Shown here: positions 1-27,330 of the stretch, one piece after another
Numbering within the stretch: position 1 is the first letter of the stretch
How the letters are laid out: each line of letters opens with the position of its first letter
Source: Patescibacteria group bacterium
GTDB taxonomy: Bacteria > Patescibacteriota > Patescibacteriia > UBA2591 > PGYQ01
Length of the DNA: 27,330 nt
Assembly: GCA_020061725.1 (NCBI GenBank)
Contig: JAGUXS010000068.1
Coordinates: 1 to 27,330 of the forward strand
Direction: 5' to 3'
Program-made: the position numbers and the translations under genes
Notes under the pieces: generated by a model
What the model saw: the letters and a program-made list of their open reading frames with translations, nothing else
Databases searched by the model: none
Told to the model about the DNA's origin: nothing

Positions 1-88
1 AAAATTTATTAACGTTTTAGTAATAAAAATAATTTAATATTAATTGTCAGTTAATTGTTATAATATTTTTACATCCAAAAAAGAGAGG
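1..88 (-). other. Putative second 16S insertion in V3 (or break in the gene)
   Basis: After ...GTAGAGGAACAAG the sense strand becomes AT-rich non-rRNA sequence. The universal 515-533 motif expected at about 9-27 by E. coli spacing is absent. Confidence 0.65.
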
Positions 89-440
89 CTTGTTCCTCTA
101 CAAAAGATTTTTACACCCCGAAGGGCTTCATCAATCACGCGGCGTCGCTTCGTCACCCTTTCGGGCATTGCGAAATATTCTCGACTGCAGCCTCCCGTAG
201 GAGTCTGGGCAGTGTCTCAGTCCCAGTGAGACGGGTCATGCTCTCACACCCGTTACTCATCATAGCTTTGGTAAGCCATTACCTTACCAACAGGCTAATG
301 AGCCATAGGCCACTCCTAAAGCCCCTTGCGGGTTTAGTTCAATAAAAGTATTATCGGACCACATGAGGAATTAGCTTCGATTTCTCGAAGTTATGCCTCT
401 CTTTAGGGTATGTTACCAATGTGTTACTCACCCGTTTGCC

Positions 441-583
441 GCGCGCTTCGCTTTTGCTTCGCTAAATGTAAAATGTAAATAGGTAAAATGTAAAATTATG
501 GAGTAAAAAATTTTTATAAAAATTTTTACAAAGTTTTTTAATTTTTAATTTTAAATTTAGCGTGAAACGAAAGCGAAACGCGC
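441..583 (-). other. Extended helix 6 (V1) insertion in 16S: GC-rich stem clamping an AT-rich loop of about 87 nt
   Basis: 441-467 GCGCGCTTCGCTTTTGCTTCGCTAAAT pairs imperfectly with 555-583 ATTTAGCGTGAAACGAAAGCGAAACGCGC; the loop contains AAATGTA/AAAATGT units. The 27F-to-338 distance is about 107 nt longer than in E. coli. Confidence 0.85.
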
Positions 584-602
584 ACGACTTGCATGCCTTA
601 AA

Positions 603-1635: not shown

Positions 1636-4236
1636 TTTTAAATTTTTTAATTCTGTTTGATATAATTTTAATTTTTCTTTTTCATTTTCAACAATATTAG
1701 CTGGAGCTTTATTGATAAATTCTTTGTTTAATAATTTTCTTTTTAAATTAAAAATTAATTTTTCCAATTCAATAATTTTTTTATTAATTCTCGCCTGTTC
1801 TTTTTCTTTGTCTTTTGCGTCAATTAAATAAATTTCAATATCGTCAATAATAATACGAATCACTCGATCATCTTGCGTTTTTACATCGCAAGATTTTTTA
1901 ATTTCTAATTCATTAATATTTGTTTTTAAATTTTTAATTAATTCTTTATTTTTTTCAATTAAAGCAACGTATTTTTCAGTACAAATTATTGTTTTAATTT
2001 TTTTACTTGGTTCAATTTTATTTTCCGATCGAGCGTTACGAATGGCGGAAATAATATTTTTAATTATTTCAAAGTTATCAATATTAATATTAGTGAATTT
2101 ATTTGAAACGGTTGGCCATTTTTCTATCATTAATAAATTATTTGTTTTTATCTCTTGCCAAATAATCTCTGTTACAAAAGGAATAAATGGATGCCAAAGT
2201 TTTAATAAATTTTTTAAAATATAGAATAATATTTCATTTTTCTCTTCATTTTTTTCAAATTTGCTGATTTCTAAATACCAATCCGCAAAATCATCCCAAG
2301 TAAATTTACGTAATTTTTCACCAGCTTGTGAAAAATTATATTTTTTTAAATCATCGTTAATTTTTTTAATTAAATTATTAAATTTATTTAAAATCCATTC
2401 ATCGGCCAAAGTTAAATTTTGATATTTAACATTTAACATTTGACATTTAACATTTGACAATATATATCTTGCGATATTCCAGAGTTTATTGATAAATTTT
2501 TTAAATCCTTCAATTTTTTCTTCGCTTAATCGGCTGTCATTGCCCGGAGTACTTCCAATTAACATTGATAAACGAACAGCATCGGCACCGAATTTTTCAA
2601 TCATATTAATTGGATCAATTCCATTACCTTTTGATTTGCTCATTTTTTTGCCATTTTTATCTAAAATCATTCCGTGTAAATAAACATTTTCAAAAGGAAT
2701 TTCTTGTAAGGCAAATAATGACATCATAATCATTCGCGAAACCCAAAGTGTAAGAATTTCATATCCAGTTTCCAAAATTTGCGTTGGGTGAAATTTTAAT
2801 AGATCTCCAGATTTTTTATTTTTTTTAAAATTATCTGGCCATCCTAAAGTTGAAAAAGTCCACATTCCAGACGAAAACCAAGTATCTAAAGTATCAGGAT
2901 CTTGAGTCCAATTTTTACTTTCTGGTTTTTTAACGCCAACATAAATTTCTTGTTTACGATAATAAACAGGAATTTCGTGTCCAAACCAAATTTGACGAGA
3001 AATGCACCAGTCGCGCAAATTTTCCATCCAATCCAAATATCTTTTTTTAAATCTTTCTGGAATAAATTTTATTTCTTCTTTTTCTGCTACTTCAATTGCT
3101 TTTTCTTTAAGTGATTTATTCCCTAATTTTTTTATTTTTTTATCAACGCTAATAAACCACTGTTTTGATGGTAAAGGTTCAATCGATGCGCCGCATCGAT
3201 AGCAAATTGATAAATTGTTATTAATTTCCTCTTGTTTTTCTAATAAATTTTGTTCTTTTAATTTTTTAATAATTATTTCTCGAGCTTGTGTTGTAGTTTT
3301 ATTTGAAAATTCATTAAATCCTTTATATATTTTTCCCTCTTCATTTATAACTTTTTTTATTTCTAAATTATTTTCTTCCGCCATTTTCCAATCAGCCATA
3401 GAATGAGCGGGTGTAACCCCTAATACCCCTGTTCCAAAATTCATATCAACCTCGCGATTAGCAATAATTTTTAATTTTAAAGGAATTTCGCAAAAATTTA
3501 TTTTATAAATTTTTCCAATATATTTTTTATATCTTTTATCTTTTGGATTTACTGCCACGGCTGTATCGCCTAATTTTGTTTCTGGTCGAGTGGTAGCGAT
3601 TATAAAAGGAAAATCTTTGCTATACTTAAAAAAGTATAAAATCGCTTTTTGTTCTTTGTATTCAATTTCATCATCAGCTAGAGTGGAATGGCATCGCGGA
3701 CACCAATTTACAATTCTTTCTCCTTTGTAAATTATCCCTGCTTCATACATATCAACAAACATTTGCGCGACTGCTTTTTTTCTTTGTTCGTCTAAAGTAA
3801 AAGCTTCGCGAGACCAATCCAAAGAAGCGCCCATTTTTCTGGTTTGGCGCAAAATTGTCGCTTGAGTTTGTTTTAAAAATTTCCAAATTTCTTCAAGTAA
3901 TTTTTCTTTTCCTAAATCGTGACGAGTTATTCCTCGTTCTTTAAATATTTTTTTCTCAACAGCATTTTGTGTGGCAATAGCCGCGTGATCAGTTCCTGGT
4001 AACCACAACGTTTGATATCCTTTCATTCTATGATAACGAATCATTAAATCTTCAATAGCTAACATAGCAGAGTGTCCTAAATGTAATTTAGCTGTTATGT
4101 TTGGCGGGGGTAAAATAATAGTATAAGTGGGAGCGTTTTTAGATAAATTTAAATTATCAGGATTAAAAAATCCTGATTTTTCCCATTTTTGATAAATTTT
4201 GTCTTCGTAATTTTGTGGATTATAAGTTTTGTCCAT
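1630..4236 (-). CDS. valS: Valine--tRNA ligase
   Basis: PPPNIT..LHLGH (HIGH), PGTDHA, TTRPET, DWCISRQIWFGH, DTWFSS, KMSKSKGN; C-terminal coiled coil; 868 aa. Confidence 0.97.
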   Translation of the reverse strand: MDKTYNPQNYEDKIYQKWEKSGFFNPDNLNLSKNAPTYTIILPPPNITAKLHLGHSAMLAIEDLMIRYHRMKGYQTLWLPGTDHAAIATQNAVEKKIFKERGITRHDLGKEKLLEEIWKFLKQTQATILRQTRKMGASLDWSREAFTLDEQRKKAVAQMFVDMYEAGIIYKGERIVNWCPRCHSTLADDEIEYKEQKAILYFFKYSKDFPFIIATTRPETKLGDTAVAVNPKDKRYKKYIGKIYKINFCEIPLKLKIIANREVDMNFGTGVLGVTPAHSMADWKMAEENNLEIKKVINEEGKIYKGFNEFSNKTTTQAREIIIKKLKEQNLLEKQEEINNNLSICYRCGASIEPLPSKQWFISVDKKIKKLGNKSLKEKAIEVAEKEEIKFIPERFKKRYLDWMENLRDWCISRQIWFGHEIPVYYRKQEIYVGVKKPESKNWTQDPDTLDTWFSSGMWTFSTLGWPDNFKKNKKSGDLLKFHPTQILETGYEILTLWVSRMIMMSLFALQEIPFENVYLHGMILDKNGKKMSKSKGNGIDPINMIEKFGADAVRLSMLIGSTPGNDSRLSEEKIEGFKKFINKLWNIARYILSNVKCQMLNVKYQNLTLADEWILNKFNNLIKKINDDLKKYNFSQAGEKLRKFTWDDFADWYLEISKFEKNEEKNEILFYILKNLLKLWHPFIPFVTEIIWQEIKTNNLLMIEKWPTVSNKFTNINIDNFEIIKNIISAIRNARSENKIEPSKKIKTIICTEKYVALIEKNKELIKNLKTNINELEIKKSCDVKTQDDRVIRIIIDDIEIYLIDAKDKEKEQARINKKIIELEKLIFNLKRKLLNKEFINKAPANIVENEKEKLKLYQTELKNLKL
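2417..2458. repeat. In-frame heptamer array ATTT(A/G)AC x5 plus one degenerate unit in valS
   Basis: Units read directly at 2424-2458; encodes LSNVKCQMLNVKYQN in the linker after KLWNIARYI. Confidence 0.9.
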
Positions 4237-11601: not shown

Positions 11602-11781
11602 AATATAAAAAATAAAAAAATGTGAAATTTAAATGTTGTTATTGCGCGAGGAAATTTATTTAAAATTATAAACAAAGTTCCATTATTTGTTAAAATTAAT
11701 ACGATAAATACACTTTTTTATATAACAAGTGAACGAGGAAAGCGAATATAATAATTTTGCATTTTACATTTTAAATTTTTT
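11593..11781. repeat. A-rich heptamer array (11593-11637) and complementary T-rich array (11753-11781) between the TPR gene and tRNA-Thr
   Basis: AAAATGT AAAATAT... overlaps the TPR stop codon; ATTTTGC ATTTTAC ATTTTAA ends just before the tRNA. Confidence 0.7.
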
Positions 11782-26600: not shown

Positions 26601-27330
26601 TTATAAATATTTTATCATATATTCATCTCTTAGTCTATATCCTAATTTTCTATAATATTCGCGGACACCGATGCCGGAGATTACGGCTATTTTTTTAATT
26701 TTAAAATTTTTTGTTTGTTTAAATTTTTTAAAAGAAAATTTTAACGAACGAACAATTTTTTCCGCTTCAATAATTAATTTTTTTCCAAAACCAAAATGTT
26801 GAATCGCTTTTTTGTCTTTTTCTCCAATGGCAACCATCTGTCCATAAGTATGAACTTCGCGAATAATCGCGCAATCTTTTAAAATTGTTAATTGTTGATT
26901 GTTAATTGTTGATCGAAATGATGGTATTCTTAATCGCAAAAAAGCATATAATTTTTTTCGTTTTAAATCTTCAAAACTTAAAAAATATTCTATACCTCCA
27001 GACGCTTCATATTTTTCAACAAATATTTTTAAATTTTGCATTTTACATTTTACATTTTGTATCTTTTTTACCTGTCTGCATCTAATGCATTGGCATTTTA
27101 AATTTTGTTTTTTCATTTCTTGTTGAACTATTTCTCGTAAATTTGAAACCTTGCTCCCAGCCTCAATGTTAGTTGATGGAATATCGCGAATCACTCGAAT
27201 AATTCTTACATATCGTGGAATAATTGATTTGATTTTAATCAAAAGATTTGTTAATTGTTTAGTGGAATATGGTTTATATTTTCCTTGTTTCCAAAGTTGA
27301 TAAAGTTTTGAATTTTTTGTCACAACGCAA
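26601..27330 (-). CDS. elp3: Elp3-like radical SAM/GNAT tRNA U34 acetyltransferase, C-terminal part (5' end outside the window)
   Basis: YVRIIRVIRDIP, CQCIRCR, FLRLR, IREVHTYG, QHFGFGKKL..EAE, VISGIGVREYYRKLGY; the frame is open to the window end (CVVTKNS). Confidence 0.9.
   Translation of the reverse strand, partial: CVVTKNSKLYQLWKQGKYKPYSTKQLTNLLIKIKSIIPRYVRIIRVIRDIPSTNIEAGSKVSNLREIVQQEMKKQNLKCQCIRCRQVKKIQNVKCKMQNLKIFVEKYEASGGIEYFLSFEDLKRKKLYAFLRLRIPSFRSTINNQQLTILKDCAIIREVHTYGQMVAIGEKDKKAIQHFGFGKKLIIEAEKIVRSLKFSFKKFKQTKNFKIKKIAVISGIGVREYYRKLGYRLRDEYMIKYL
26884..26911. repeat. In-frame heptamer array ATTGTT(A/G) x4 in elp3
   Basis: Read directly; encodes STINNQQLTI. Confidence 0.88.
27033..27060. 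repeat. In-frame heptamer array ATTTT(GC/AC/AC/GT) in elp3
   Basis: Read directly; encodes QNVKCKMQN. Confidence 0.85.

Follow-up and report, generated by a model that had tools for sequence, protein, structure and literature searches.

Does a 16S rRNA gene of a Patescibacteria genome carry an inserted element at the tip of helix 6 and, if so, to which kind does it belong and what becomes of it in the RNA? The window, i.e. the whole stretch of 27,330 nt that was analysed, is contig C15 (1-27330) of an assembly labelled G000, which with its 0.62 Mb, 27.7% GC and 88% completeness fits the CPR/Patescibacteria type. The start of the contig truncates the 16S gene (Table 1). A search with RF00177 over the whole genome gave no match, whereas cmscan detected the gene in the window, a difference that we ascribe to tool sensitivity.

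The extended helix 6

In the Infernal alignment to RF00177, the tip of helix 6 exceeds the bacterial consensus by 116 nt, which correspond to window 454-569 and fall between model positions 79 and 83. An earlier note on this DNA had described here an imperfect GC-rich stem of about 27 bp around an AT-rich loop of about 87 nt, and had proposed to fold 430-600. The minus strand of that region folds as a single unbranched hairpin of -45 kcal/mol (z = -4.98), equalled by none of 200 shuffles. The stem is recovered in this fold as a clamp of 27 bp (15+5+7), in which 584-555 pairs with 469-440 and the arms have 47-53% GC. The stretch between the arms (470-554, 85 nt) is AT-rich as described, with 10.6% GC versus approximately 49% in the flanking rRNA, but it is no open loop, as another 27 base pairs are predicted there. 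On the model, 440-584 is a single hairpin of approximately 54 bp, which in principle would be co-transcribed within the 16S gene.

Two arrays of 7-nt units form the two sides of the interior helix, and a palindrome of the A5T5 type forms its tip (Table 1). The AAATGTA/AAAATGT units of the earlier note were found again by Tandem Repeats Finder (TRF). The opposite side is T-rich, as had been claimed; its units are complementary to the first array only in part (TGTAAAA versus TTAAAAA), and the two arrays pair imperfectly. Over the copy as a whole, periodicity at lag 7 reaches only a modest z of 2.0. The sense and antisense strands of the insert fold almost equally well (-43.5 versus -42.6 kcal/mol), so that selection at the RNA level is not supported by the G000 copy alone. 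The insert (116-143 nt) contains no ORF, hence no gene for a small four-helix-bundle protein (PF05635) in its loop.

Table 1. Positions of the helix 6 hairpin, its parts and related copies. Positions without a contig name refer to the window.
Feature	Position or site	Strand	Basis and remarks
16S rRNA gene, 5' part (5' third)	648-1	minus	cmscan RF00177, 371 bits, E 8.9e-115, model positions 1 to ~531
Entire extended helix 6 hairpin (GC clamp and AT-rich interior)	440-584	minus	cmscan, predicted fold, match to covariance model R1
5' arm of GC clamp (RNA sense)	555-584	minus	holds CGUUUCGC motif; pairs with 440-469
3' arm of GC clamp (RNA sense)	440-469	minus	holds GCGAAGCG motif; pairs with 555-584
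AAATGTA heptamer array, x4.6 including one 8-nt unit	464-496	plus	TRF, direct repeat; in the RNA the 3' side of the interior helix, UUUUACA
TTTTTAA heptamer array, x3.4	535-558	plus	TRF; in the RNA the 5' side of the interior helix, UUAAAAA
Apical A5T5-type palindrome, AAAAATTTTTAT x2.9, period 12	506-540		hairpin tip; TRF, inverted repeats
23S hairpin at the GGAAAAGAAA site	C72:8159-8346		R1 42.7 bits; lag-7 identity 0.54
23S hairpin at H25	C72:7619-7810		R1 20 bits; lag-7 identity 0.53
23S hairpin, clamp sharing CGUUUCGC/GCGAAGCG with helix 6	C72:8342-8647		lag-7 identity 0.45 (weak)
23S hairpin	C72:6271-6469		lag-7 identity 0.39, no peak
Clamped copies in 23S	H45, H25, H78, between GGAAAAGAAA and ATTCCC, at least four further sites		flank motifs, Rfam in part
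Other 23S-linked clamped copies	just upstream of the 23S 5' end; within another 23S insertion
Clamped copies at further 16S sites	h9/h10, h17
Clamped copies in RNase P RNA	two sites

Clamped hairpins in relatives and in other stable RNAs

The earlier note had also proposed a comparison with the 16S genes of relatives. Among 55 genomes of the order the helix 6 region is assembled in about 43, and its length was taken between the anchors CATGCAAGTCG and ACGGGTGAGTAA. This distance is 20-49 nt in most relatives and 78-198 nt in 12 of the approximately 43. The distribution is patchy, with long and short forms occurring within single genera (g16, g18 and g29). All of the long inserts fold as one hairpin that extends helix 6. 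Several display 7-nt periodicity, the lag-7 z being 5.5-6.9 in G033, G038 and G021 and 2.6-3.5 in G029 and G030; it is absent in five others. A long helix 6 conserved throughout the clade and free of heptamers, the case that the earlier note had held against an insertion, is not what the relatives show. In the class-level sample about 35 of the 258 genomes with a match had split matches; in all five that were inspected helix 6 is a hairpin of 72-163 nt, and in G162 it has clear A4N3 heptamers.

The sense strand folds better than the antisense strand by 14-25 kcal/mol in six of the 12 long inserts (G029, G038, G037, G021, G047 and the class-level G122), and these six hold 4-14 G.U pairs. In G033 the difference amounts to 11-12 kcal/mol and in four others to approximately 5-6 kcal/mol; in G030 it is reversed. 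In these predicted folds the strand bias and the G.U pairs are taken as a sign of selection on the RNA in the relatives.

Five inserts (from the congener G005 and from G029, G033, G038 and G021) have common ends, ..GCACAAGGAAATT.. and ..GATTTTCT(C/T)GCG... The helix 6 insert is old and shared among members of the order rather than a recent event, and only the AAAATGT arm of the G000 copy looks lineage-specific. In four relatives a contig (G001:C50, G004:C70, G027:C6 and G035:C43) stops precisely where 16S helix 6 begins, which fits a repeated insert that interrupts assembly. The short helix 6 of L026 (G009; CTTGTG-loop-CACAAG) and of L015 (G025; CCTTGTG-loop-GCAAGG) resembles the 5' clamp arm alone and may be what remains where an insert was lost.

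The termini of the homologous copies read 5' CCUUGUGC-n4-CACAAGGAAAUUC ... GGAUUUUCUCGCGC-n4'-GCGCGAGG 3'. Metagenome contigs were scanned for CACAAGGAAATT followed after 65-125 nt by GATTTTCTCGCG, a pattern of 24 fixed bases for which less than one match is expected by chance (by a rough estimate that takes the collection to hold some 1e12 bases). It yielded 64 matches on 57 contigs, located at no fewer than 14 sites in 16S, 23S and RNase P RNA, as judged from flank motifs and partly from Rfam (Table 1). Six matches lie in 16S helix 6 with both anchor motifs, and one more with the 5' anchor only. A scan of genome contigs with the 15-mer GGATTTTCTCGCGNG gave chance matches in unrelated genomes, and its two matches in Patescibacteria were coding sequence.

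From 51 distinct copies the consensus is CCTTGTGC-n4-CACAAGGAAATTC, A-rich heptads, T/G-rich heptads and GGATTTTCTCGCGC-n4'-GCGCGAGG. RNAalifold joins the two ends, with compensatory changes at 11 of 30 pairs; columns of n4/n4' are altered on both sides in 21, 9 and 32 of the 51 sequences. Because the clamp ends covary in this end-to-end pairing, two separate local hairpins at the ends are ruled out. The search pattern itself imposes the invariance of both boxes and of their two A.C mismatches, but not the conservation of CCTTGTGC and GCGCGAGG. The interiors have a mean lag-7 identity of 0.535 versus approximately 0.29. We also considered that the 5' clamp arm is the native helix 6 hairpin and that the element was inserted 3' of it, an idea that was dropped because the same arm is found at other rRNA sites.

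Copies at different rRNA sites of the same contig are 98% and 100% identical in two of six pairs, versus a median of 50% for random pairs. Such near-identity at different sites points to copying within genomes. Rfam has no family for the clamped element, and the only matches are sub-threshold hairpins of plant miRNA precursors.

Some of the individual locations deserve mention. In related metagenome organisms the RNase P RNA genes at L194:1313-1757, L206:3047-3227 and L220:198-356 contain one or two clamped copies each, and an RNase P RNA gene with two copies drops under the RNase P threshold of Rfam. The copy at L177:322-496 ends 5 nt ahead of the 23S 5' end, within the leader; the 23S leader is the usual place of RNase III processing stems.

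A covariance model, R1, was built from the 51 copies. It scores the helix 6 inserts of G021, G033, G038, G029 and G005 at 167, 155, 131, 108 and 59 bits, respectively, and it also finds copies in or beside the 23S genes of G033 and G038. Approximately 30 dispersed loci in G021 score up to 91 bits against model positions 24-154, which cover the interior but not the clamp. These clamp-less loci sit in spacers of 150-250 nt between ORFs, whereas among the genomes examined clamped copies occur only in or directly beside stable-RNA genes.

The copies and heptamers of G000

The helix 6 copy of G000 lacks the conserved boxes CACAAGGAAAUU and GAUUUUCUCGCG. Canonical paired boxes were found nowhere in G000, and they appear as deletions in the R1 alignment of 433-591; in the congener G005 they are present. 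The clamp of G000 is instead of the CGUUUCGC/GCGAAGCG type, which G030 has as well. R1 nevertheless matches 433-591 (minus strand) from end to end, weakly, at 28.8 bits (E ~1e-4 in a 1-kb search with filters off); with default filters the match is missed. The sense strand outscores the antisense strand.

The 23S gene of G000 (C72:3995-8792) measures 4798 nt versus 2925 nt for the model and contains at least four GC-clamped, AT-rich hairpins (Table 1). Three of them occupy sites of canonical copies, and two of the four have a clear lag-7 peak. Larger low-GC insertions are also present in this gene, at sense positions of approximately 2895-3336 and 3766-4217. In the 16S gene, the cmscan alignment degenerates past model position ~460. 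Here, at helix 17 (V3), window 1-88 (minus strand) is AT-rich with 7-nt units and runs off the contig end. At the same position of 16S the congener G005 has a full-length R1 match (L002:2057-2226, 52.7 bits) with a GC clamp and AATTTTA/GGAAATT arms, and on that ground window 1-88 is read, from its sequence, as the start of a second insertion of the same kind and not as a truncated gene. A metagenome copy (L202) also lies within the first 539 positions of a 16S gene, in helix 17 as judged from its flanks.

The 14-mer AAATGTAAAATGTA occurs seven times in the window with at most one mismatch, versus 0.14 expected. The occurrences include 27037-27057 and 11758-11778, the latter at the AAATGTA-type unit that the earlier note had pointed out beside tRNA-Thr(GGT). 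Searched against G000, the interior of the helix 6 hairpin gave eight matches of at least 45 bits at other AT-rich hairpin loci, the best at C9:1053-1143 (63.5 bits); arm-wise shuffled controls reached 39.5 +/- 3.6 bits with 0.04 matches of at least 45 bits, and since these keep only the mononucleotide content per arm the significance is overstated for A/T runs. The hairpin at C9:1053-1143, the closest intergenic one to the helix 6 interior, lies approximately 500 nt upstream of the RNase III gene. The earlier note had favoured an insertion of the heptamer element over an intron, and this view is upheld by the homologous hairpins, by the ends that are shared with copies elsewhere, by the dispersal of the interior in the spacers of G021 and by the resemblance to intergenic hairpins of G000, with which the copy has the AAAATGT unit in common.

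Heptamers are a general property of the non-coding DNA of G000, which is periodic at lags 7, 14 and 21 (lag-7 0.357 versus ~0.33); tandem-repeat periods peak at the same three values. The genome contains 77 strict heptamer arrays, versus six in a shuffled genome. They are built from many different units, of which AATTATG (15), AAAATTG (7) and AAAATGT (6) are the commonest. Dimers of AAAATGT (at most one mismatch per 14-mer) number 40 in G000, 111 in G021 and 6 in the congener G005. Given the 40 in G000 versus the 6 in its congener, the AAATGTA arm seems to have been written over an older insert specifically in this lineage.

As a rule, the idea that the helix 6 unit is the commonest heptamer of its own genome fails, with a match in G000 only: GGGATTT is rare outside 16S in G038, and G021 is rich in AAAATGT, yet its helix 6 insert is built of CGAAATT/GGATTTC. 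Nor do AAAATGT arrays usually have an inverted partner built of their own unit: within 300 nt this is so for only 6 of 35.

Origin and fate of the insert

We give a probability of about 0.6 to the reading that 440-584 is a gene-less, GC-clamped and diverged member of a family of hairpin insertions with heptamer arms, shaped by spread, drift and RNase III excision. In this family both arms consist of 7-base units in tandem, those of the 5' arm being A-rich and those of the 3' arm U/G-rich. The element would spread by copying between sites within a genome (transposition or gene conversion), and its AT-rich interior would then drift via slippage of the 7-nt units; it is by such drift that the G000 copy may have gained the AAAATGT unit of its own genome. 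The hairpin would be transcribed within pre-16S, and the RNase III of the genome would cut the long duplex, as in the classical rRNA intervening sequences (IVS). The AU-rich part would be degraded and 16S would be left as a 5' fragment of approximately 70-100 nt plus the remainder, with the GC clamp and the normal tertiary contacts keeping the two pieces together. The consequence for ribosome function would be neutral or nearly so.

A gene for RNase III is present in G000 (PF14622, 136.9 bits, C9:1656-2057). By analogy with the known IVS, we put excision of the insert by this enzyme at slightly better than even odds, and consider it likelier than retention. Public sequencing runs shared at most 0.34 with the whole 5' part of the 16S gene, and the insert alone matched none of the public runs listed; four RNA runs that were aligned to the region have the short helix 6 of other organisms in place of 440-585.

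In the alternative that survives best the origin is the same and the hairpin is retained in the mature 16S, as an expansion segment that extends the solvent-exposed "spur" (helix 6) of the 30S subunit by approximately 150 Å and that may serve ribosome packing, hibernation or protein binding. We regard this as possible, at odds well below even. Insertions are reportedly tolerated in helix 6 (PMC2441807), and the sense-strand bias in G.U pairs indicates that the RNA helix is under selection in the relatives. Moreover, the clamp is conserved beyond the needs of pairing, including two A.C mismatches in all pattern-selected copies, and could be a binding site and not a cleavage site; the A.C conservation, however, is in part imposed by that pattern. 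A retained segment is harder to reconcile with a distribution that is patchy even within genera, with an interior of intergenic-like composition inside GC-richer rRNA, with long near-perfect duplexes in a genome that encodes RNase III, and with the same element in spacers, where no ribosomal role is possible. In addition, most CPR rRNA insertions are missing from transcripts according to later reviews (PMC9297842).

It is improbable that helix 6 (V1) simply grew in place by 7-nt replication slippage, with no inserted element and with the likeness to other loci due to a shared mutational bias. The general lag-7 signal of the non-coding DNA and the excess of strict arrays with their many units would fit such growth, as would the clamp of G000, the exact 26-mer of whose 3' arm occurs nowhere else in the five congeneric genomes covered by the search. 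Slippage does not account for the 24-base termini, which recur at no fewer than 14 unrelated sites in rRNA and RNase P and are carried at helix 6 by G005 and four other families, nor for R1 matches of 108-167 bits between the helix 6 inserts of different families. The near-identical copies at different sites of one 23S gene and the intergenic loci of G021 that match the interior argue against it as well.

It is very improbable that the insert is a spliced intron, be it of group I, group II or another type, or a self-cleaving ribozyme, with re-ligation of 16S afterwards. CPR rRNA genes often contain group I and II introns (PMC11270868), but the insert is short (too short for a group I intron, as the earlier note had argued), ORF-less and a simple unbranched hairpin, and it matches no Rfam intron (RF00028/RF00029) or ribozyme, whether at the gathering score or with E values as high as 5. 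The intron sites that the text of PMC11270868 names do not include helix 6. Least probable of all is an assembly chimera or a misjoin at a repeat: the contig does begin inside 16S and the contigs of relatives break at helix 6, but correct 16S lies on both flanks in the right order and strand, the ends pair over 27 bp, and the same architecture recurs at the same position in independently assembled relatives, which also speaks against the chimera that the earlier note had considered.

The protein family associated with some IVS is well represented in this order. PF05635 (23S_rRNA_IVP/S23p) genes were found in 39 of its 55 genomes, often in multiple copies (20 in G017, 16 in G028 and 13 in G002), and in only one of 14 control genomes. 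Several of the PF05635 genes of the order have internal stop codons. G000 has a single such gene, encoding 122 aa (C1:1989-2291, minus strand). Heptamer arrays bracket it (C1:1900-2370), with ATGAATG/TAAAATG on one side, which is AAAATGT-like, and GAATTCT/AAATTCT on the other. Inverted heptamer arrays likewise flank approximately eight of the 12 PF05635 genes examined in relatives, and none of these 12 has clamp boxes beside it. A tentative extension, which we hold to be a good deal less probable than the main reading, is that there is one superfamily of mobile elements in CPR/Patescibacteria, clamped in the loops of stable RNAs and unclamped in operon spacers, of which the classical IVS with PF05635 would be the gene-carrying form. 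The clamp with its A.C mismatches might then be the site of a dedicated processing or mobility factor, and the 7-nt periodicity a footprint of copying or binding.

Comparison with known insertions

Insertion sequences in the rRNA of CPR/Patescibacteria were reportedly described by Brown et al. in 2015 and by Tsurumaki et al. in 2022 and 2024. 

Insertions at recurrent sites are present in 48% of the 16S and 82% of the 23S genes of CPR bacteria (PMC11270868). Those characterised so far belong to the group I/II introns and come with homing endonucleases, unlike the helix 6 hairpin. Short insertions (<200 bp) that are neither introns nor ORF-bearing have been labelled "uncharacterized", and IVS of the RNase III type were suggested for them (PMC11270868). 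The texts consulted on CPR rRNA insertions, in which site positions are given in figures only, describe no hairpin family with conserved termini and no heptamer periodicity, and we found no published description of a heptamer-armed hairpin element.

Palindromic repeats that invade genes include the Rickettsia palindromic elements, Correia/NEMIS (which are processed by RNase III), REP/REPIN, the mitochondrial GC-clusters and the double-hairpin elements in rRNA genes. Like the present family they are small, non-autonomous hairpins that are dispersed in spacers and tolerated in structured-RNA or protein genes; unlike it, they have arms of unique sequence and not of tandem heptamers. We know of no link between these elements and PF05635.

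Inserts of the present kind have practical consequences. They appear to break assemblies at rRNA genes, as at the four contig ends in helix 6, and they lengthen V1 and V3 amplicons, which would bias 16S surveys of these organisms. The covariance model R1 can be used to annotate them.

The closest known counterparts are the rRNA IVS, which have been known since 1990 and whose origin and means of spread are, to our knowledge, unexplained. In bacteria they occur in 23S helices 25 and 45 of Salmonella, Leptospira and Coxiella and in the 16S of Clostridium paradoxum, Helicobacter and Campylobacter; some of them carry a small PF05635/S23p gene and others have none. The IVS of C. paradoxum is said to have been located in V1 by Rainey et al. 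in 1996. The 23S IVS of Coxiella, which RNase III excises, has a terminal stem of 28 bp and includes heptameric repeats in tandem, the number of which varies between strains (PMC4990558). The helix 6 insert and its family resemble the IVS in that extra sequence is placed at the tip of a peripheral helix, in the complementary termini with a stem of approximately 27-28 bp, in the sporadic occurrence among close relatives and in the presence of family copies in 23S H25 and H45. Excision is known for the IVS, and for the G000 insert it is proposed by analogy. The differences are that the G000 copy sits in 16S helix 6, that its whole interior consists of 7-nt units on both arms, that conserved clamp boxes mark a subfamily which occupies at least 14 sites, some of them in RNase P RNA, and that clamp-less copies are found between genes. 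The kind of element is thus already known, as rRNA IVS or palindromic insertion elements; what is new is a GC-clamped subfamily with conserved termini, present at many sites in three stable RNAs, with evidence from covariation and a usable model. The family gives a concrete handle on the origin and spread of the IVS, and on the short ORF-less insertions of CPR rRNA genes.
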